IMG/VR virus record: IMGVR_UViG_3300027782_006468
Location: 56,940-76,939 of that record
Length of the DNA stretch: 20,000 nucleotides
Origin: an uncultured virus (IMG/VR IMGVR_UViG_3300027782_006468)
Lineage: Duplodnaviria; Heunggongvirae; Uroviricota; Caudoviricetes
Direction: 5' to 3' (one strand)
The notes under the pieces were generated by a model. It was not told where the DNA came from and did not search any database. It worked only from the letters and a program-made list of their open reading frames with translations. A program made the position numbers and the translations under genes. Below, piece by piece: positions 1-13,500 of the stretch (the first letter of the stretch is position 1; each line of letters begins with the position of its first letter).

Positions 1-932
1 TGAAAAACATCATGCTGTTGATGAAATTTGAAATCATTGCCAAACACTCCATCAATCTCACATAATATATTCTGCTTCATACGCATAAAAAGCCATTCTT
101 TTACCTCTTTTAGACCAGACGATAAGTTAGAATCATCATCAAATCTAAGCAATTCCATGACTTTATTGAAATCTAACCAAGCATAGCCAGTCATTTGGTT
201 ATTTTTTTCATAATTTTTCAATAATGGTAATTTGGAAGTAATATTTACAAAATGAAGAAGAAATAAAATGTAATTTTTTGCATCAAAATAATTTAAACAA
301 GCAGATGCATCCATTATTCTAAATTCAATAGTCTGTCTTTTATTGTTTACGAAATGATATGTATTAATCGAATAATATTTATGCATCCCAATTGAATTTA
401 TAAGTTTATTAGAACTAATAAGTGGGTGTTCAACTTCATCAACAATGTCGGAAAAAGACAATAACTGGCAATATCTATTTCTTTTTCTTTTAATTGGAAC
501 CATGTTTGCGAACACATATTCGCATTTAATCCACCAACTAATTACAGAAGCAACTTGATCAACAGAAAGATCGTGAACATCAACATGAACATGAAACGAA
601 CATCTTTCATCTGCTTTTATATTGCTGTCATTGCTAAAAGCATTGACAACAGTAGATACTTTTCTCACTCCATCAATTCCCTTTAAAACTGGTGTGCATA
701 CTTCGATACCACAACTACTATCTGGCTTTAAAATCCAAGAATCATTATTGTGATTATTTCCCCACTTTTGAATAAACACCTTATCTTTGGCAACTTTTTG
801 AACCAGCCAAGAAACATAAAAAATTCCTTTTGGCAAATTTCCCAATTCATAATCAAATGGACGACTTCTGCCATCGAAGGCATTAATTTCTAACTCAACT
901 CCAAAACGCCTTTTATTATTACAATTATTCAT
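1..932 (-). CDS. Putative amidoligase (COOH-NH2 ligase, Amidoligase_2-like); 3' end runs off the window
   Basis: Not in the ORF track; translated by hand: MNNCNNKRRFGVELEINAFD...WILKPDSSCGIEVCTPVL...DERCSFHVHVD...KYYSIN...RQTIEFR. The FGVELE, D-S-(x)-E-x-x-T-P, CSFHVH and TIEFR motifs fit this glutamine-synthetase-fold family. GAGG SD lies 5 nt before the ATG. Confidence 0.82.
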   Translation of the reverse strand, partial: MNNCNNKRRFGVELEINAFDGRSRPFDYELGNLPKGIFYVSWLVQKVAKDKVFIQKWGNNHNNDSWILKPDSSCGIEVCTPVLKGIDGVRKVSTVVNAFSNDSNIKADERCSFHVHVDVHDLSVDQVASVISWWIKCEYVFANMVPIKRKRNRYCQLLSFSDIVDEVEHPLISSNKLINSIGMHKYYSINTYHFVNNKRQTIEFRIMDASACLNYFDAKNYILFLLHFVNITSKLPLLKNYEKNNQMTGYAWLDFNKVMELLRFDDDSNLSSGLKEVKEWLFMRMKQNILCEIDGVFGNDFKFHQQHDVF

Positions 933-942
933 GTTCACCTCA

Positions 943-2723: not shown

Positions 2724-3728
2724 TTAGATTCCGTCAAGTTGCTTCAAGAAATCATCATCAGCAAGAGATTCATCTTCGCTAATAACACTCTTTGAAACCT
2801 TCTTGGATACAAGAACTTCTTCTCTGATGACATCAGAGCCAGTTATTACAGATTCTGCAGATTTTGCAGCAGCTTGAACTGGTGATTTGCTATAAAACTC
2901 ATCGAGTTCTCCAGCCGAGTCACCTTCAACAACCATACCTGTATGAACACGAAGACCATGCTTGATTTCTTCGGAAGTCTTCAGTTTTCTCAACGCAGAC
3001 AAATCGTTAAGATTACCGAACCAATTTTCCAATTCTTCTGGTGTTCCAGCAATAGACGCTTCCTCAAACTTTGAAAAATCATAGTTTGGATACTCTCTAT
3101 TCCCACTTTTAACAACCTTCTTTACAAGCCTAAAATCACGACCAGTTGTTGGATGTGTGATATCGCCTAGTTCTTTTTCTCCAGCAGCCTCATCACCAGA
3201 AATTGCTCTCATAATCTTGCTATGAACTTGCTTGCCACAAGAATAAATCTTAGGTCCAACATTAGCTGCTGTAGCTTTATTCTTCGGATCAACCTCTGAA
3301 CGCACAATTACATTGTAATAATAGCGTTCTATAGGCTTGAGTTCTCGTGCTTTGTTCTGAAGATTTTCCTGTTCTTTTCCAGAAAGACCTTCGGACTTCT
3401 GCCACAAGTCAGAATAGTACTTGCAAATAATACATTCGCCACGCCAAGCTTCTGCACCTTTGTCGTTTGGTGAAAGCTCTCTAGGGCAATGATAGGTTTT
3501 CTTTTGATTGGTCGTAGGATTTGTCAGCGTGTGAATTCTGGTCGCACAGTAGAGTCGATGACCTTTTTTCTTTGGAAGAAATCGCATCATTACGAATCCA
3601 TCCCTATCTGGCATCTTAACAAACTTTTGAAGGTACTCGTTGTCAAGACCTCCACCGTTTTCTGAGCTAACTCGTTTAGCTTCTGCTTTAATTTCGTTAA
3701 TGTCTAGTGGTTCGTAGTCAATTCCCAT
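2724..3728 (-). CDS. T4 gp32-like single-stranded DNA-binding protein
   Basis: RFLP, candidate Zn ligands (RIH...HCP...CIIC), RYYYNVIVR, GRDFRL, YPNYDFSKF and acidic C-terminal tail DDDFLKQLDGI; sits directly upstream of the recombinase. Confidence 0.85.
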   Translation of the reverse strand: MGIDYEPLDINEIKAEAKRVSSENGGGLDNEYLQKFVKMPDRDGFVMMRFLPKKKGHRLYCATRIHTLTNPTTNQKKTYHCPRELSPNDKGAEAWRGECIICKYYSDLWQKSEGLSGKEQENLQNKARELKPIERYYYNVIVRSEVDPKNKATAANVGPKIYSCGKQVHSKIMRAISGDEAAGEKELGDITHPTTGRDFRLVKKVVKSGNREYPNYDFSKFEEASIAGTPEELENWFGNLNDLSALRKLKTSEEIKHGLRVHTGMVVEGDSAGELDEFYSKSPVQAAAKSAESVITGSDVIREEVLVSKKVSKSVISEDESLADDDFLKQLDGI

Positions 3729-5690: not shown

Positions 5691-6803
5691 ATGTACGACT
5701 TTATTATTGTTGGATCAGGATTTTTTGGATCAACATTTGCAAGGCGAGTTACCGACCTTGGAAAAAAATGTTTAGTTCTAGATAAAAAGCCACACATTGC
5801 AGGGGCAGCACACGATATGCCTCAAGATGATTACTATGTTTCATCTTATGGCGCACATGTATTTCACACACACAGCGAAGAGGTTTGGGAATTTGCCAAT
5901 AACTTTTCTGAATTTATTCCATTTATAAATAGACCAAAAGTTCTATCGAATGAAAAAATATATTCATTTCCAATAAATTTGATGACACTTCAACAACTTT
6001 GGGGAATAAAAACTCCAGCTGAAGCAAAAAAAATATTAGAAGAAAAAAAAATTCCATGCGAAAATCCAAGTAATTTTGAAGAATGGGCATTATCCATGGT
6101 TGGAGAAGAAATATATAAAAAATTCTTCTATGGATATACAAAAAAACAATATATGCGAGAACCAAAAGAACTTCCAACATCAATAATTCAAAGACTTCCT
6201 ATTCGACTTACATATGACGAAAATTATTTTACTACGAAATTTCAAGGGATTCCAAAAAATGGATATACAAATCTAATTTATAATATGCTTGATGGTATTG
6301 ATGTTGAGGTTGGTGTAGATTTTATAAAACAAAAAGACAAACTAATGCGTCTCGCAAAACAGATTGTCTATACAGGTCGAATAGATGAATTTTTTGATTT
6401 TGAATTTGGGAAACTTGAATACAACACCATGAAATTTGAGAAAAAAGAATTTATTGGAGATCAACAAGGAAATGCAGTTATAAATCATGTTGATGAATCG
6501 GTTCGATATCTTCGAAGCATAGAGCATCGTCATTTCTACAAACACGGAGAGTCTATCAAACATTATGCTGGTAAAAAAGAAGATTTCACTAGCGTAATAA
6601 CCTACGACATTCCAGCAACATATGAAGAAAATCCAGACCCATTATACCCAATTAGAAATAAAATAAATTCTGAAATTTATCAAAAATATTCATCAATCAA
6701 ACCAAGTAATGTAACATTTGGCGGAAGATTGGGAGAATATAAATATTTGGACATGGATCAAAGTATGGCTTCTGCTCTTCAAAAGGCTAAATCCTTTGAA
6801 TGA
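5691..6803 (+). CDS. glf: UDP-galactopyranose mutase
   Basis: FAD-binding IIVGSGFFG, YGAHVFHT, FFYGYTKKQY, RLPIR..YDENYF, QGIPKNGYT, YTGRIDEFF, EHRHF, GGRLGEYKYLDMDQ. Confidence 0.95.
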   Translation: MYDFIIVGSGFFGSTFARRVTDLGKKCLVLDKKPHIAGAAHDMPQDDYYVSSYGAHVFHTHSEEVWEFANNFSEFIPFINRPKVLSNEKIYSFPINLMTLQQLWGIKTPAEAKKILEEKKIPCENPSNFEEWALSMVGEEIYKKFFYGYTKKQYMREPKELPTSIIQRLPIRLTYDENYFTTKFQGIPKNGYTNLIYNMLDGIDVEVGVDFIKQKDKLMRLAKQIVYTGRIDEFFDFEFGKLEYNTMKFEKKEFIGDQQGNAVINHVDESVRYLRSIEHRHFYKHGESIKHYAGKKEDFTSVITYDIPATYEENPDPLYPIRNKINSEIYQKYSSIKPSNVTFGGRLGEYKYLDMDQSMASALQKAKSFE

Positions 6804-6805
6804 AA

Positions 6806-7243
6806 TTATTCATGATCATATAGACACAACTCAACACCAGCCTCTTTGAACATTGTTCTGGAAATGTCACAGGAATCTTTCCATCTTTTTGCCAATTCTT
6901 CTGATAAGTTTGGTGCTATGCATCTTTTAATTCCACTTTGAATGATTAGAGAGGCACAACCAGAACATGGCATGAATGGATATGTAACTATAGAACATCC
7001 ATTCAAATTCCTTTGGGCAAATAAAATAGCATTAGCCTCTGCGTGGACTACCATTTTATACTTTATATCTCGATCATCATATCTTTGAGGATCATCACAA
7101 ACACCTTTTGGAAATCCATTGTAACCTATAGAGACTATTCTTTTGTCGGAATCAAAAATAACAGCACCAACTTTGGTTGATGGATCTTTGCTCCAAAGAG
7201 AAATGTGTTTAGCTAAATCTAAAAATCTAATATCCCAAATCAT
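6806..7243 (-). CDS. dCMP deaminase
   Basis: SKDPSTKVGAVI, GYNGFP, HAEANA and PCSGC zinc motifs. Start at ATG 7243, overlapping the upstream stop (TAATG), with an AAGGA SD. Confidence 0.93.
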   Translation of the reverse strand: MIWDIRFLDLAKHISLWSKDPSTKVGAVIFDSDKRIVSIGYNGFPKGVCDDPQRYDDRDIKYKMVVHAEANAILFAQRNLNGCSIVTYPFMPCSGCASLIIQSGIKRCIAPNLSEELAKRWKDSCDISRTMFKEAGVELCLYDHE

Positions 7244-7785
7244 TAAATTCCTTCGCAATCTTCAGCATCATAAGCCATTAAATTACTTGCAAATTCGTCT
7301 TGTGGCTGGCAATAATTCGTCTTATACAAAAAATGATACGCATCAAAGATTCCCTCGTCATCTCTAAAAAAATCTTTTTCTATAGATACAGCTTTAAATC
7401 CCATGCTCTTGAAAAAAAGATGGGCATGAAATCTTTCTTCAGAAATATAGGAATTTATATAATTTCGTTTATCTTTTTCTTCTGGATTGCAAGATTCTGA
7501 TCCTAGTTTGTCAATCAATTGATCTACCATCGCTCTGGCATAACCACGCCTACGATAATTTGGATTTATTGCTATATTGATAATATAAAATCCTTTAGGC
7601 ATCAGTTCGTACAAAATAAAGCCAACTATATTATTATCAACTATAATTACCTTTCCAATGTTGCCCCTATTTTTCAAACAATCCAAGAAATCTTTATGAC
7701 ACCAAGGTTGAGAAAAAGAATCTTTTTCAATTTTTACAACCAAATCAATATCATCTTTTATCATCCAACGAATATTATATTTCAT
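7243..7785 (-). CDS. RimI-like GNAT N-acetyltransferase
   Basis: IEKDSFSQPW, IVGFILYE, NIAINPNYRRRGYA (acetyl-CoA motif A), FFKSMGFK, DAY. Confidence 0.85.
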   Translation of the reverse strand: MKYNIRWMIKDDIDLVVKIEKDSFSQPWCHKDFLDCLKNRGNIGKVIIVDNNIVGFILYELMPKGFYIINIAINPNYRRRGYARAMVDQLIDKLGSESCNPEEKDKRNYINSYISEERFHAHLFFKSMGFKAVSIEKDFFRDDEGIFDAYHFLYKTNYCQPQDEFASNLMAYDAEDCEGI

Positions 7786-8285: not shown

Positions 8286-9812
8286 TTATTCCTCTGCATC
8301 TATGACGCTATTTTTGGGTGATGTAACTTTCTTCTTCTTCTTATCAACAGAGTAAGTATCAAAAGCAATATCTTCGCTTCGTTGCATTTGAACCCTAGTG
8401 AGCCTTTCCTTGTAAGTTTCCACACTGATCTCGTAAATGTCCAAAGTTCCCATTGAAAAATCAAAAGCCATCTTGAATGGGAATCTTGATTTTCCATTTC
8501 TATGTTTTATAACAAATCCACGACCAACCTCTGCATCTTTTTCAATCGTTTGTTGATTGATCGACCAAAATCCATCCAAAGGTTTGAACTGGTCGAATGA
8601 TGTTCCAATATTTGATTCATCAATATATTGCGATATTTCTAACTTTGCGGCAGTTTGATTTGGTTGCACACAAGTTAATGTGCAATGTTGTTTCTCGACA
8701 CCAAATCCACGCAAATCTCTCAATATTCTATAAGCAGATTCATACTTTTTTACAGTTGGATCATCTTTCATTTCACCAACATAATCTATAATAACCAATG
8801 CTGGTTTCCATCCCATTGCCTCTAATCGTGAACAATATCCACGAATGCCATTCACATCTATAGAACCACCCGGAAATTGCTTTAATATAAAAAGATTTTG
8901 ATCATCTTTGTCTTTTCCAAATTCAGCAATAGTCTTCTTTATCTGTTCTTTTGATTCTCTTAAAAGATTAATATCTATCTTTGCAAATTGACTTGTAAAT
9001 CTCTGAGCAATCCCAACTTCATCCATTTCTAATGTTATGTACAAAACTTTATGACCAAGAAGAACATTTGCAACAGCAGCCTTTACTAGTGCCAAACTTT
9101 TTCCAGTTCCCGGCAAACCAATCCAAGCTGCAATCTGTCCGGGAAATAAACCACCATTCGTCAAGGCATCATCGATGGAAGGAAAACCACTAGTGAATCT
9201 TTCCTTGCCTTGAAATTGATCTTCCATTCTTCTGAACATCTCTTCGATATTCAAAAAATACTCTAATCCCGGTTCGTAGTCCGTATCCACACTCATAGAC
9301 TCACGCATTTTTTCATAAACATAAGACCATGTTTTTTCGTCTTCTGGTGCTTCCGACATCTTTTGCAAACATTCATGAAATGCTACTTTAATTGCTTGCA
9401 CCCTTGCAAAATATGTAACTCTTTCCAAAAGATATTCACGAGTATCAATGCCGGGAACATAGTAGTCATATAAGGCTTCAAGTTCAGAAATATAATACAA
9501 TTGAACTGAATTATCTTTTTCTTTAAGGTGATTTAAAAGCTCTTGCTTCAAAACAGCCATGTGAGGAGAAATTCTTTTTTCTTGAAAATAATTGAATAAT
9601 ATTTTTGTAATAGTGACATGAACTTCATTGCTGAAATAATGGGGCTTTAATTTGTCTATGCTTTGAATGAGCATAGTCTGATCCATCAACAACATTCCAA
9701 GAATTCTTCTTTGAAATGTATCATCCCATGCAAAATTTGTTTTTATACTATCTGGATCAGAGAAAGAATCGAATTTGGATTGTTCTTCTGGTGTCAACTC
9801 TCGCATGTACAT
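8286..9812 (-). CDS. Replicative DNA helicase (DnaB/T4 gp41-like, SF4)
   Basis: TSGFPSIDD..GGL, Walker A GLPGTGKS, YITLEM, Walker B IIDY, arginine finger KHRNG. The true start may be ATG 9806 (GGAG SD). Confidence 0.92.
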   Translation of the reverse strand: MYMRELTPEEQSKFDSFSDPDSIKTNFAWDDTFQRRILGMLLMDQTMLIQSIDKLKPHYFSNEVHVTITKILFNYFQEKRISPHMAVLKQELLNHLKEKDNSVQLYYISELEALYDYYVPGIDTREYLLERVTYFARVQAIKVAFHECLQKMSEAPEDEKTWSYVYEKMRESMSVDTDYEPGLEYFLNIEEMFRRMEDQFQGKERFTSGFPSIDDALTNGGLFPGQIAAWIGLPGTGKSLALVKAAVANVLLGHKVLYITLEMDEVGIAQRFTSQFAKIDINLLRESKEQIKKTIAEFGKDKDDQNLFILKQFPGGSIDVNGIRGYCSRLEAMGWKPALVIIDYVGEMKDDPTVKKYESAYRILRDLRGFGVEKQHCTLTCVQPNQTAAKLEISQYIDESNIGTSFDQFKPLDGFWSINQQTIEKDAEVGRGFVIKHRNGKSRFPFKMAFDFSMGTLDIYEISVETYKERLTRVQMQRSEDIAFDTYSVDKKKKKVTSPKNSVIDAEE

Positions 9813-9854: not shown

Positions 9855-10703
9855 TTAAGTAAAGGTGCTTTTTGGTTTTAAAAGCGATAGTTTCATCTTC
9901 TTTTGCGGAGAAGATGTTCCTTCAATCAAATCCTTGAATCTAAAATAACCATCCATCCAATTTTGCGTCAAAGTGTGATAAATCAGACAATCTCCATAAT
10001 AATTGTTTGTCTGCACATCTTGCTTTGTAAAATATTTGTATTTTAAATTTTTATCAAGCACGAAAATCGAACAAGCAAGTTCTTCCCTTCCTTGTGGCGG
10101 TTCATTCTTATCAGAAGTAACTTGGTGCAACCAATCACCCAATTCATGCGTTCTATCTTTGAGTGCAAGGCATAAATCAAAAACCTTTGTTGCATATTCT
10201 TTCAACAAACCTTTATTCCACAAAACCACACCACTATTGAATGGTCGCATAGTCGTAGATTTATAGGTCATAGAATATCTTTCACCAAAACAATTCTTAT
10301 CAGCAACAAAATCATACTCATCAAGCAAATTGAAAAGATGTGATATATCACCAAAGATAAAAGTGTCGGCATCCAACAACAATGTTTTTTCTTCAGATGC
10401 ATTAACTAAAAACTTTCGTTGTGCGGAACAATAACCTTTCTCCTGACCCATCTGAATGTCGTCTATTACTTTAACATTTACATTCAAACGATTACACAAC
10501 TCCATAAATTCATTTGTGGTGATCTGTGGGATTTTAGCGGCACATTGAAGCAGTCCGCCAACATTACGATTATTTTCGTTATTATCTTTGATGTAAAAAA
10601 CATCGACTGGAATAGAAGGATTATGCTTACGCAAGGTTATTAGGCTGCACCTTGCCATAGAAAGATAAAACCAGAATTCATTTACAATATAAACTATTCG
10701 CAT
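9855..10703 (-). CDS. GT-A fold glycosyltransferase (GT8-like)
   Basis: SLITLRKHNP, DxD motif LLLDADTF, FNSGVVL, late IYH. Confidence 0.75.
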   Translation of the reverse strand: MRIVYIVNEFWFYLSMARCSLITLRKHNPSIPVDVFYIKDNNENNRNVGGLLQCAAKIPQITTNEFMELCNRLNVNVKVIDDIQMGQEKGYCSAQRKFLVNASEEKTLLLDADTFIFGDISHLFNLLDEYDFVADKNCFGERYSMTYKSTTMRPFNSGVVLWNKGLLKEYATKVFDLCLALKDRTHELGDWLHQVTSDKNEPPQGREELACSIFVLDKNLKYKYFTKQDVQTNNYYGDCLIYHTLTQNWMDGYFRFKDLIEGTSSPQKKMKLSLLKPKSTFT

Positions 10704-10804: not shown

Positions 10805-11380
10805 CTATTCGCCATTTAAATAATCATATTCAGAAAGAGAAACCTGACCCGATCTTATTGATTTCTCTCTTGTTATTTTTTTGCCCATACTTTTTTGCCC
10901 ATTCCAAACAATTGCTTTGCAGTATGTGGAAAATTTTGTGTCTATTTTCAATCGTTCATTTCTATCTGGTCTAACTTTCTTTGGAACTACAGACTTCACA
11001 ATCAAATCAAGCATGCGTTCCTGCTTGTATCCAAACTTCTGTCTGTTCGCACCATGCCTAGTTCTATTGCTCCACAAATCTTGAAGCTTAACTATTATCT
11101 TCTTCATGAAGCCATCAATATTGTGCTGATCTACAGAAGCCAAACACTTCTCAATATATATCTGTCTTTTATAATAAGATCCAGCACGAATGATTGACAA
11201 TTGCAATTCTTGATTTATATCTTCAAAATCATCAGTGTAATTATTTTTTGAGTTTTTCTTTTGCAATTGATGTGCTGCGTAATAACAAAGCTTTCCAAAG
11301 CACTTAGTGAGATGATCATATTCCAATTGAGTTATCGGAAACGATTGGCAAATGTTTTTCGGATTCTTTTGATTTTTCAT
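10805..11380 (-). CDS. Sigma70 region-2-like protein (candidate phage sigma factor) with an internal insertion
   Basis: LCYYAAHQL...DFEDINQELQLSIIRA resembles regions 2.1-2.2 (DLIQEGNIGLMKA); KFSTYCKAIVWN resembles region 2.3 (KFSTYATWWIR); ends with a VSLSE motif. No region 4 visible. Confidence 0.55.
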   Translation of the reverse strand: MKNQKNPKNICQSFPITQLEYDHLTKCFGKLCYYAAHQLQKKNSKNNYTDDFEDINQELQLSIIRAGSYYKRQIYIEKCLASVDQHNIDGFMKKIIVKLQDLWSNRTRHGANRQKFGYKQERMLDLIVKSVVPKKVRPDRNERLKIDTKFSTYCKAIVWNGQKSMGKKITREKSIRSGQVSLSEYDYLNGE

Positions 11381-12710
11381 TCTTAGTCCTATTTGGCAGT
11401 TTAATTGTTTTCATCTCAGTAATTTTTCTTCCAACAGAGCAAGAAATGCTCATGCTCAAATTTGGAAATAAATTACATTCTGAAACCAACGATTTATGGG
11501 AAGCCAAAATAACTTCTTTTAATTTTTCCCTGTTTGCATAAATCATATACCCGTCATGTACATTATAAGCTATTCTCCCAATACCATTCAAGGATTTGTA
11601 AAGACCAATCAATTGATACAAACAATAAATGGCAGAAGGAGATTGAACTGCAAAATTTCTAGCCCTATAAGACTTATCTTGAAAATGCCTTGTTTTTCCA
11701 CAATAATCCACGACTTTTTTATCGATTTCGGCTTTGTTCTGGTAATCTTCAATCCACTTATAAGCTTTAAAAAATATATTTTTAATTCGATCAACAATTG
11801 CTTCTGCAACTTTTATTGGCAATCCAAACTTCTCTGATATTCCATAAGCACTCATACCATAAAAGACAGGCAAAAATATTTTTTTACATAATGATCTTTT
11901 GTCTTCGGAATCACAAGGAGTTTTCAAAATTTTCTCATAAGCAACTCTGTAGATGTCCTCGCTATCACACAAACCATTTATTTCCTCATCACCAGACAAC
12001 CAACCCAACATTTTAACTTCCATGCTTTTGTAATCCATATAAACAAATACGGAATCAAAATCCAAAGGCTTCAATAATTCACGCTGTTCTGGACTTATGA
12101 CATGCGGAACGAATGATCTAGTGAGAGCCTTATAGCAAAGCATTCTTCCATTTTCTTGACCAGTTATGTCATAAAAGGCATGTACCTTTTCGGTTGTCAA
12201 TATACCAATCGTTTCTAGCGAAGGAACTACTTCCAAAGCTAAAGGAAGATGAACCGACTTGTAAATCTTTTGTGTTTTAGACCAATTCTCAGAAGACATG
12301 ACCTTTTTCAATCTTCCCATGAATTCAATCATCGTTTTTGGCTTTTCGAGCTTTGTATCTGTATAGCTTTCCAAAATCTTAAGATCAATGAGTGTTCCCT
12401 TAAATTCAATAGTAATCCCATACATTCCCAACAAAAATGAAGCTATGACTTTCCAGTTCCAAACAAGTATCTTTTTGCCTTCACAACACAAAGAATTAGA
12501 AAAAGCCTTTGAGAATATTCTTGCAGACCAATCTCCATCCAAAGGTATCTCATGCGAACCAAAAGAAGAACAAATAAATATCGTGGCTTCTTTAGCCTTT
12601 TCTCTGCTCGTAAAGTCCAATACAGCATCCGTAGCTGAAAGGTAAACAGCCCCTGTTGCTGCATGATCATACAACAGCTTAACAATTTGACTGGGATGCA
12701 TGGAACTCAT
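11316..12710 (-). CDS. Family A DNA polymerase, thumb-less, with degenerate 3'-5' exonuclease domain
   Basis: KVHAFY..G..NGRM (RVHTSY..TATGRL), motif A YMDYKSMEVKML, DIYR, motif B RSLCKKIFLPVFYGMS, RARNFAVQS, motif C YNVHDG; only 464 aa. Confidence 0.88.
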   Translation of the reverse strand: MSSMHPSQIVKLLYDHAATGAVYLSATDAVLDFTSREKAKEATIFICSSFGSHEIPLDGDWSARIFSKAFSNSLCCEGKKILVWNWKVIASFLLGMYGITIEFKGTLIDLKILESYTDTKLEKPKTMIEFMGRLKKVMSSENWSKTQKIYKSVHLPLALEVVPSLETIGILTTEKVHAFYDITGQENGRMLCYKALTRSFVPHVISPEQRELLKPLDFDSVFVYMDYKSMEVKMLGWLSGDEEINGLCDSEDIYRVAYEKILKTPCDSEDKRSLCKKIFLPVFYGMSAYGISEKFGLPIKVAEAIVDRIKNIFFKAYKWIEDYQNKAEIDKKVVDYCGKTRHFQDKSYRARNFAVQSPSAIYCLYQLIGLYKSLNGIGRIAYNVHDGYMIYANREKLKEVILASHKSLVSECNLFPNLSMSISCSVGRKITEMKTIKLPNRTKNEKSKESEKHLPIVSDNSIGI

Positions 12711-12749: not shown

Positions 12750-13500
12750 AAAAGTCGTAACAAAGTATTTTTCTACTATTTTTATATCTTTATATTTTAA
12801 ACCGAGTTGCCGACTTAGTTATCTTGCTGTTTAATGTATGAATTAAATAAAATTACATACATAATCAATTGAATTGTTTCTGTGTTTAAACATATCGTAA
12901 TTCATTTGATTCAACTGATAACTCATAGTATGAATTCTTATGAACATCATAAGATTCCTTGTGTTTTGAACAATTGATACCAATGAAGCCATATAACTCA
13001 CAGTTGTTCCCATTTCTTGTCTGCAAAATGAGAGTCGGCTATTTTTGACACAACTGCGGAAGACTTGGCTTTTCGAGCATAACAATGGTTCTCGTTGCAC
13101 CATTCGTGTTTTTCACTACAAAGACTTACCCGTCAGGGCTGCTCAAGTTTTTTTCACGGTAAGTTATCGTTGGGGTATCCTCAACAATTACCTAAAGGGG
13201 AAGAGTAAGCTTCCGTCTTAGTTATTTATAGTTTCTATGACAAGTAGAATTATTATAATTTAGGTAAGAGAAAATTGCAATCGATTATTTTGAAAAAATA
13301 ATTTCATTTTCAATAATCATTGCAAAAACTACAGATGTGATTAGTCTAATTCTTGTTTTGATAAAAATGAAAAAATTTTTTCAATTAATTGAATGACGAT
13401 TATCGTAAGCAATACTAACCAAAGTAATAAAATAATTTCATTCATTTTTGATATCATACTTTAATCTAAGATAATTTTCAACTAGATAAAATGCCATCTT
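12750..13500. ncRNA. Candidate structured non-coding element (large ncRNA, long leaders, or replication origin)
   Basis: Largest gene-free gap in the window, with more than 10 stems found by eye, e.g. 12834-12862, 12932-12957, 12986-13071, 13084-13104, 13123-13165, 13169-13185, 13188-13267, 13275-13325. No known family recognised; strand unresolved. Confidence 0.5.

Follow-up and report, generated by a model that had tools for sequence, protein, structure and literature searches.

A family A DNA polymerase lacking the thumb subdomain, encoded at the head of a phage replication module

Can a family A DNA polymerase dispense with its thumb, and what would such an enzyme be used for? The question is raised by a gene in a 20,000-nucleotide stretch of DNA (hereafter the window), which corresponds to bases 56940–76939 of a 76.9-kb uncultured virus record (IMG/VR IMGVR_UViG_3300027782_006468) rated 16% complete by CheckV. 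The gene (11316–12710, minus strand) encodes a protein of 464 aa, P0001, and its translated open reading frame (ORF) is the sequence on which an initial sequence-only reading had been based. According to that reading, P0001 is a family A polymerase with the entire thumb subdomain deleted and the catalytic core intact. The thumb holds the duplex 4–8 bp behind the primer end, and to our knowledge all textbook Pol I-type enzymes grip the primer-template duplex with it. The GC content of the window is 29–39%. The closest public phage record for the polymerase is a 595-kb, unannotated “uncultured phage” (32% identity), and related IMG/VR contigs extend up to 436 kb; given these relatives, the source record, which comes from a lake phage, is a fragment of a huge phage genome.

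By sequence, P0001 is a member of family A with an atypical architecture. The Pfam DNA_pol_A family (PF00476) matched it with an E-value of 2.7e-20 and 73.1 bits, where the cut-off is 34.3; in the genome search the score was 73.9 bits. This match covers residues 165–429, equivalent to positions 96–378 of the 381-position profile, and leaves the first 95 profile positions unmatched. Of the palm, fingers and thumb that define the family A architecture, the palm and fingers superpose and the thumb is absent. The 5′ nuclease domain of bacterial Pol I is missing as well: neither PF02739 nor PF01367 gave a match to P0001, and the structural model described below starts at an exonuclease-like domain.

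The extent of the deletion is evident at the junction. In E. coli Pol I, 108 residues (546–653) lie between the segments RIERNGV (539–545) and RVHTSY (654–659), while in P0001 only four residues (171–174) lie between SLETIGI and KVHAFY. The junction, ILTTEK (residues 170–175; 12186–12203, minus strand), falls inside the interval 12180–12218 where the deletion had been placed, and the claim that the whole thumb is gone is borne out. Klentaq aligned to the family profile in two pieces. In the first (“LYREVERPL-SAVLAHMEATGVR”), chain residues 137–158 correspond to profile positions 145–167, a pairing that is weak alone (i-Evalue 2.4e3); in the second, residues 267–531 correspond to positions 174–423 (i-Evalue 1.1e-27). 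This leaves ~108 Taq residues without a counterpart in the family profile. When the family was compared with four canonical PolAs by hhalign, helix 143–168 was paired, with little confidence per column, to the final helix of the thumb, and the N-terminal half of P0001 was wrongly placed when it was globally aligned to Klenow by MAFFT. Whether the junction or the hhalign version is taken, the sequence alignments agree that ~104 thumb residues are missing.

A thumb could nonetheless be formed by another part of the chain, a prospect that we addressed with an AlphaFold2 model built from 23 family sequences. The model has a mean predicted local distance difference test score (pLDDT) of 90.8 and a predicted template modeling score of 0.89, with disorder only in the tail, residues 442–464. 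Helix 143–168 leads directly to strand 175–177. Foldseek searches with the model returned Pol nu, Bst, Klenow, Taq and Pol theta at E-values of ~1e-19 to 1e-20, and VIA-align superposed model residues 4–435 on Klentaq residues 295–832 and Bst residues 303–876 (Z of 28–30, root mean square deviations of 2.7–3.1 Å for 388–408 aligned residues). The Pfam, Foldseek and VIA-align scores all lie well outside what chance would produce. Since the Klenow-type fold accounts for nearly all ordered residues in the model, no other segment of the predicted chain can form a substitute thumb. The C-terminal tail was also considered as a basic tether to DNA or to a partner protein. This candidate was rejected, as the stretch that follows the last conserved motif is short (median, 4 residues) and carries a net positive charge in only 84 of 172 proteins.

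The active site, by contrast with the thumb, is largely retained. Motif A, DYKSME (12018–12035, minus strand, as are the motifs that follow), carries D226, equivalent to D705 of E. coli Pol I, and E231, equivalent to E710, the steric gate against rNTPs. Motif B on the O-helix (RSLCKKIFLPVFYG; 11856–11897) holds R272 (R754), K276 (K758) and Y284 (Y766), with L280 replacing F762. NFAVQ (11643–11657) provides N352 (N845) and Q356 (Q849), which make primer-terminus minor-groove contacts, and motif C, HDG (11550–11558), contains H385 (H881) and D386 (D882), followed by G387 in place of E883. Together with R189 (R668), these account for every active-site equivalent that the sequence-only reading had named, as well as for the glycine that it had noted at position 883. 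The PNLQNIP region is replaced, again as had been recognized, and FVPHVIS stands opposite NIPVRN of Pol I. In addition, the 11 residues that precede N845 in E. coli Pol I, a template-binding loop, are missing from P0001, and R841 aligns with Tyr348.

This architecture is that of a family and not of a single gene. A word-indexed search found 28 relatives of 263–530 aa with 33–99% identity, on contigs of up to 361 kb, and an exhaustive profile search at E ≤ 1e-30 returned 259 proteins, each representing a cluster at 50% identity. The 150 with the best scores are 291–545 aa long, and 148 of them match as a single collinear stretch. When 178 family proteins were aligned with MAFFT, 13–21 residues were found to separate the columns of E166 and Y180 in 177 proteins, compared to 117 in E. 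coli; the remaining protein, which is without this region, could not be scored. Thus, none of the 177 scorable proteins has a thumb, and the deletion, being kept throughout the family, is neither an assembly error nor a recent pseudogenization. D226 and D386 are present in all 178 proteins, and R189 (177), K276 (177), E231 (176), H385 (173), R272 (171), N352 (167) and Q356 (166) are nearly as constant. Position 284 is Tyr in 133 and Phe in 44 of the 178, Leu280 is found in 169, and position 387 is Gly in 156, Ala in 13, Glu in 5 and Ser in 3. As far as seen, the family occurs only on phage contigs, the longest of which are from huge phages. Five of the 178 proteins (P0023, P0037, P0039, P0050 and P0071) have an extra N-terminal domain of ~85–115 aa (motif NYLPRYK...WVGK), for which Pfam gave no match and which may be an added DNA-binding module.

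The N-terminal part of P0001 (~residues 1–140; 12291–12710, minus strand) is a reduced 3′-5′ exonuclease-like domain without the catalytic carboxylates. In the model it takes the exonuclease-domain fold, as judged by superposition on Klentaq and Bst, and it is ~60 residues shorter than its counterpart in the Pol I large fragment. Pfam searches gave no exonuclease match in P0001. A local, low-stringency hhalign comparison (E 0.069, weak alone and used only in combination with the structural superposition) placed S25, T27 and A90 at the positions of D355, E357 and D424, with the helix bearing Y497 and D501 in a gap. Its register agrees with the conserved landmarks DLKILESY and DTMLESY. Family columns at the positions of the exonuclease carboxylates (D355, E357, D424 and D501) are non-acidic, and the conserved D32 corresponds to the non-catalytic Asp of “DSLD”. 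Because the mapped sites and the family columns lack these carboxylates, proofreading is very probably absent, to judge from the alignment and the model. Taq and Bst also carry a dead exonuclease domain.

Is this a polymerase that is already known? Two divergent phage PolAs, divPolA1 and divPolA2, were identified from sequence by Yutin et al. 2024 (Virol J 21:200, PMC11348598). As described there, divPolA1 has a truncated thumb and replacements of all three exonuclease Asp residues, occurs in 14 phages of 155–190 kb that also have a regular polymerase, and is encoded upstream of replication genes (PMC11348598). P0001 resembles the divPolA1 of Flavobacterium phage vB_FspM_immuto in several respects: the two are of similar length (~440 aa for divPolA1, 441 aa in immuto), with the thumb cut to a short linker, an inactivated exonuclease-like domain and conserved palm residues; a regular polymerase is also encoded (here a split DnaE, see below); and both head a replication module, which in immuto consists of SSB, RecA, a 5′-3′ exonuclease and DnaB. 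The two differ in the length of the thumb linker (4 residues here and 23 in immuto), in their motifs (DYxxME, with the steric-gate Glu, and HDG here; DxDxxH and YDA there) and in their hosts’ genomes, which here are those of huge phages with a split DnaE (relatives of 340–436 kb) and there those of 155–190 kb phages.

Direct comparisons separate them further. BLASTP of P0001 against the immuto divPolA1 gave an E-value of 0.093, and the family profile matched the regular PolA of immuto but not its divPolA1 (E ≤ 0.01). In hhalign, the family scored 93.3% and 2.7e-7 against divPolA1, compared to 99.65% and 4.3e-25 against the four canonical PolAs, and divPolA1 itself scored 95.7% and 8.5e-9 against the canonical set; the divPolA1 profile used here comprised three sequences only, with reference genomes LR796625 and MK892584 left out. 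When the modules were compared by BLASTP, matches between P0001’s module and that of immuto were limited to DnaB (E 5e-38) and a portion of the SSB (E 6e-5). Because the BLASTP, profile, hhalign, motif and module comparisons show no specific kinship with divPolA1, we assign the thumbless polymerases to a family of their own within the same kind, a placement made by sequence comparison. MT837804 was considered as an intermediate shared with divPolA1 and was discarded, as it encodes an ordinary bacterial Pol I with a thumb. In that 8.5-kb record (MT837804.1, “Bacteriophage sp.”, L093), the Pol I gene adjoins a histidine kinase-like ORF, and the record looks bacterial and not phage.

The second group, divPolA2, is described as having no homologous thumb and a novel N-terminal domain, and as resembling single-subunit RNA polymerases (PMC11348598). 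Like P0001, divPolA2 of barbaviruses and some Vibrio phages combines a PolA palm without a homologous thumb with a second encoded polymerase, and the account of it proposes a repair role. Its N-terminal globular domain is of unknown fold, unlike that of P0001, which in the model superposes on the Klenow-type exonuclease domain from residue 4. The family profile found no match in the divPolA2 reference genome MG592441.

P0001 shares with Klenow, Klentaq and Bst the fold outside the thumb (exonuclease-like domain, palm and fingers), as well as motifs A–C and the contacts to the primer terminus. It differs in that the thumb, the 11-residue loop and PNLQNIP are gone or replaced and in the changes of F762 to Leu and E883 to Gly. 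Minnick and colleagues are said to have found in 1996 (J Biol Chem) that deleting 24 residues at the tip of the Klenow thumb lowered DNA affinity, processivity and frameshift fidelity while catalysis was kept, and the behavior predicted for P0001 below is modeled on that result. That mutant was designed and lost 24 residues; here the whole subdomain is missing in a natural, conserved family. A thumbless viral polymerase that acts in gap-filling repair is known in African swine fever virus (ASFV) DNA polymerase X (PMC5330486); as a family X enzyme with a fold unrelated to that of P0001, it serves as an analogy only. The part of Czernecki et al. 2023 available to us describes “broken” or extended thumbs in several PolA subfamilies and notes no thumbless class. 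Our literature search did not find the family described beyond Yutin et al. 2024, in whose supplementary tables its members may stand as ordinary PolA. P0001 does not, therefore, belong to an already characterized thumbless subfamily; the thumb-truncated kind, divPolA1 and divPolA2, is known from sequence analysis only, as far as the portions of the literature at hand show. The design was first described, from sequence, in 2024, and the present family appears to be a further, separate case.

The genes around the polymerase provide clues to its role. It heads a co-directional module (all on the minus strand) that encodes a sigma-like protein, DnaB, a gp32-type single-strand DNA binding protein (SSB) and RecA/UvsX. 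The first of these, p191 (10805–11380), is a conserved all-helical protein whose gene lies directly downstream, its start overlapping the 3′ end of the polymerase gene by 65 nt. DnaB, a DnaB-type replicative helicase, is encoded at 8286–9812 (PF03796, E 9.8e-12; phrog_19, E 3.4e-52), the gp32-type SSB at 2724–3728 (PF08804, E 1.6e-10) and the RecA/UvsX-type recombinase at 1437–2708 (PF00154, E 2.8e-35; phrog_97, E 1.9e-47). A relative of the polymerase is encoded at 133 IMG/VR loci, and 80 of these were fetched with 8-kb flanks; many are near-duplicates (47 distinct p191 sequences). The module proved to be conserved: p191 homologs were found in 79 of the 80 loci, directly downstream in most and with a few small ORFs between in three, and DnaB in 72. 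Other homologs within the flanks were p229 (upstream and divergent; 69 loci), p163 (68), p288 (60) and dCMP deaminase (52). The module persists in loci whose polymerase identity is as low as 31%, and the most distant loci have a compact order of polymerase, p191, DnaB, p163, p208, p263, p139, gp32 and RecA. In the compact modules of L065–L071, the gp32-type SSB comes after the polymerase.

The polymerase is not the only one in these genomes. On the same contig, outside the window, the Pol III alpha subunit (DnaE) is split into two genes located 13 kb apart on the same strand (L003:2758-5487 and L003:18577-19926, both minus). One encodes the PHP domain and the first 98 positions of PF07733, and the other positions 100–259 plus the fingers and HhH domains. 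The split falls at the same position in four of five large relatives (340–436 kb, 67–85% complete), with the halves 4–21 kb apart; in the fifth (44% complete) a split DnaE was not found. Split minimal Pol III alpha genes, located beside a PolB, are described for jumbo phages by Iyer et al. 2021. Each of the five relatives has one PolA above the cut-off, the thumbless one. PolB, the 5′ nuclease (PF02739) and the beta-clamp domain (PF02768) were found in none of the five; since these records are 44–85% complete and divergent proteins may be missed, these negatives are no proof of absence. A separate gene for the thumb was also sought: the PF00476 search of the source record and the five relatives returned the thumbless gene only, apart from one weak match. 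This match (G004:C1:304718-305011) spans PF00476 positions 30–134, on the thumb side, scores 16.9 bits (E 3.4e-4), below the cut-off, and contains three internal stops; it is either due to chance or a relic.

From these data we put forward, with roughly even confidence for and against, that P0001 is a low-processivity, non-proofreading accessory polymerase that would carry out short-patch synthesis and leave bulk synthesis to DnaE. It would be a catalytically competent, DNA-templated, dNTP-using enzyme reduced to the palm, the fingers and a vestigial exonuclease-like domain, with the thumb (~104 residues) excised and the proofreading site lost. Because the primer-terminus contacts (the R668, N845, Q849 and H881 equivalents) are kept while the grip on the upstream duplex is lost, the enzyme would bind DNA weakly, adding dNTPs in short distributive runs without editing and then releasing its substrate. 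The steric-gate Glu, kept in 176 of 178 proteins, argues for the use of dNTPs over RNA synthesis. It might fill gaps, extend primers before handing them off, or extend D-loops during recombination-dependent replication. The proposal that P0001 is not a normal processive replicase, made in the sequence-only reading, is supported by context, namely the missing thumb, the absent proofreading residues and the split DnaE in the same genomes; the activity itself (distributive, gap-filling or priming, in the terms of that reading), its low processivity and the division of labor with DnaE are inferred.

Several observations weigh against this reading. Activity may be lowered or altered by either the change of E883 to Gly (156/178) or that of F762 to Leu (169/178). 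A Pol I-like set for Okazaki fragment maturation is not documented, with PF02739 and PF02768 found in none of the five relatives (44–85% complete). The polymerase also resides in the replication module while both DnaE halves sit among unrelated genes, and it could therefore be a main replisome enzyme. In such a scheme, P0001 would replicate one or both strands, with other phage proteins, for example DnaB, SSB or an unrecognized clamp or tether, standing in for the thumb in trans; a parallel would be T7 gp5, which owes processivity to thioredoxin and the helicase. We regard this as a serious but distinctly less probable alternative. Besides the position at the head of a DnaB, gp32 and RecA module that is conserved down to 31% identity, it gains from the subclade (5/178) with a conserved N-terminal domain of ~85–115 aa that belongs to no known family, and the same argument was made from gene context for divPolA1 by Yutin et al. 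2024 (PMC11348598). A partner, however, was not identified, the clamp domain was found in 0/5 relatives, and the C-terminal tail shows no conservation and no consistent basic character. A lack of proofreading would be unusual for the sole replicase of a 350–600 kb genome, and a conserved split DnaE is present.

The always-adjacent p191 was considered as a partner that might replace the thumb. It is far more strongly conserved than the polymerase, with 55–87% identity where the polymerase has 31–72%. The AlphaFold2 model of p191 is a helical bundle (pLDDT 82.7) that had no Foldseek match at E ≤ 0.001, and p191 has no confident sequence family. In a VIA-wide search, which is independent of Foldseek, sigma-factor domain 2 appeared in 19 of 50 rows, with Z of at most 7.4. 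The Pfam Sigma70_r2 match is weak (3 of 26 members, best E 0.042), and in one Atlas cluster, at rank 21, 53% of the members contain PF04542. These results suggest, with moderate confidence only, that p191 is probably a minimal sigma-like factor, and its role as a thumb substitute was set aside in view of the sigma-like appearance of the predicted fold.

Upstream of the polymerase, the 817-nt gap between p229 and the polymerase gene contains a second conserved feature. Here, a stretch is 74–81% identical at the nucleotide level in loci whose polymerases are 48–72% identical. Using nhmmer in three rounds, we found it in 25 of 44 distinct p229–polymerase gaps (~12987–13243 in the window, minus strand). 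The element (12957–13263, minus strand) lies 250–280 nt upstream of the polymerase start, ends 200–320 nt before that start in related loci, and is at least ~260 nt long. RNAalifold analysis of a 20-sequence alignment revealed a 14-pair long-range helix with compensatory changes in 14/14 pairs. In a 28-pair structure of five helices, 82.7% of cells pair, compared to 36–45% when the structure is slid, and double changes occur in 27/28 pairs (110 cells versus 23–29 when slid); 0 of 500 shuffles reach the observed values, although three of the hairpins were picked by eye from the window sequence, which somewhat favors the unslid structure. The element matched no Rfam family at the gathering score or at E ≤ 1, and it contains no tRNA. 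A sigma-70-like promoter match, TTGCAA-17-TATAAT (13252–13280, minus strand; by consensus match only), is located at its 5′ edge, and TTGACA...TATAAT stands just ahead of the first hairpin in four related loci. An 86-aa ORF (12843–13103, minus strand) overlaps the 3′ part of the element; as its homologs are confined to 8 near-identical loci of the 80, it is probably not a gene.

Taken at their simplest, these sequence features point to a structured 5′ leader for the polymerase operon; the element may possibly act directly with the polymerase as well. The RNA might then serve at an origin as a primer or pre-primer for the polymerase, in the manner of ColE1 RNA II, which Pol I elongates, or as a scaffold keeping the enzyme bound to its substrate. 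We consider it unlikely, and less probable than a replisome role, that the polymerase works with the RNA in this manner. Consistent with such a link are the covariation of an RNA of at least ~260 nt, present in 25 of 44 distinct gaps at a distance of 200–320 nt ahead of the polymerase start, the promoter-like site at its 5′ edge and a 151-nt contig from a lake-water RNA library that matches the element with 0 differences. Position and promoter, though, fit equally well a 5′ leader that regulates the operon; in T4, an operator hairpin in the gp43 mRNA allows gp43 to repress it. Nor does the window sequence contain a terminator-like site separating the RNA from the polymerase gene. Pieces of the window are present, with 0–1 differences, among the contigs of the RNA library; these contigs cover the stretch only in part (13 of 30 bins in X1, the remaining bins being uninformative) and are no proof of transcription. 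The fuller version, in which thumbless polymerase and RNA form one system, with the RNA made from its own promoter and serving as a primer or as a scaffold that replaces the thumb, is to our minds equally a long shot.

That P0001 is a decaying remnant or an assembly artifact without polymerase function, as the loss of E883, the replacement of motif 2 (PNLQNIP) and the missing 11-residue template-binding loop might indicate, is highly improbable and in practice refuted by family conservation, given the same architecture in 178 family proteins, both catalytic Asp residues in 178/178, the 133 IMG/VR loci that encode the family, the open reading frame and the confident model.

The remainder of the record encodes a varied set of functions. 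Interleaved with the replication genes of the window (3–938, 5691–7785 and 9855–10703) are genes for an amidoligase, UDP-galactopyranose mutase, dCMP deaminase, a provisionally GNAT-type protein (180-aa ORF) and a GT8-like glycosyltransferase, which together may constitute a nucleotide or DNA modification set. Outside the window, the same contig encodes PhoH and ThyX, as well as DnaJ, translation initiation factor IF3 and peptide deformylase (L002:4080-7546 and L002:12871-13371). A PrkA, DUF444 and SpoVR gene trio, known in bacteria as a stress or sporulation operon, is located at L004:1110-5981 (minus strand). Between the two DnaE halves lies a gene for a 2654-aa protein in which the Cys-rich Stig1 repeat was matched 21 times (PF04885, E 3.8e-156; L003:9804-17768, plus strand), and an SF2 helicase is also encoded in the record.

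In summary, a large natural family, comprising 259 clusters at 50% identity, does without the thumb. If active, these enzymes would mark a lower bound for the requirements of family A polymerases and would offer a 430-aa scaffold for enzymology and engineering. The finding also bears on how phages of 350–600 kb share out DNA synthesis when they encode both a split Pol III alpha and another polymerase that does not proofread. The conserved RNA beside the gene raises a second question, which can be tested with the same reagents: should polymerase and RNA indeed act together, they would represent an RNA-dependent start or restart of DNA synthesis in huge phages, for which there is no described phage counterpart.

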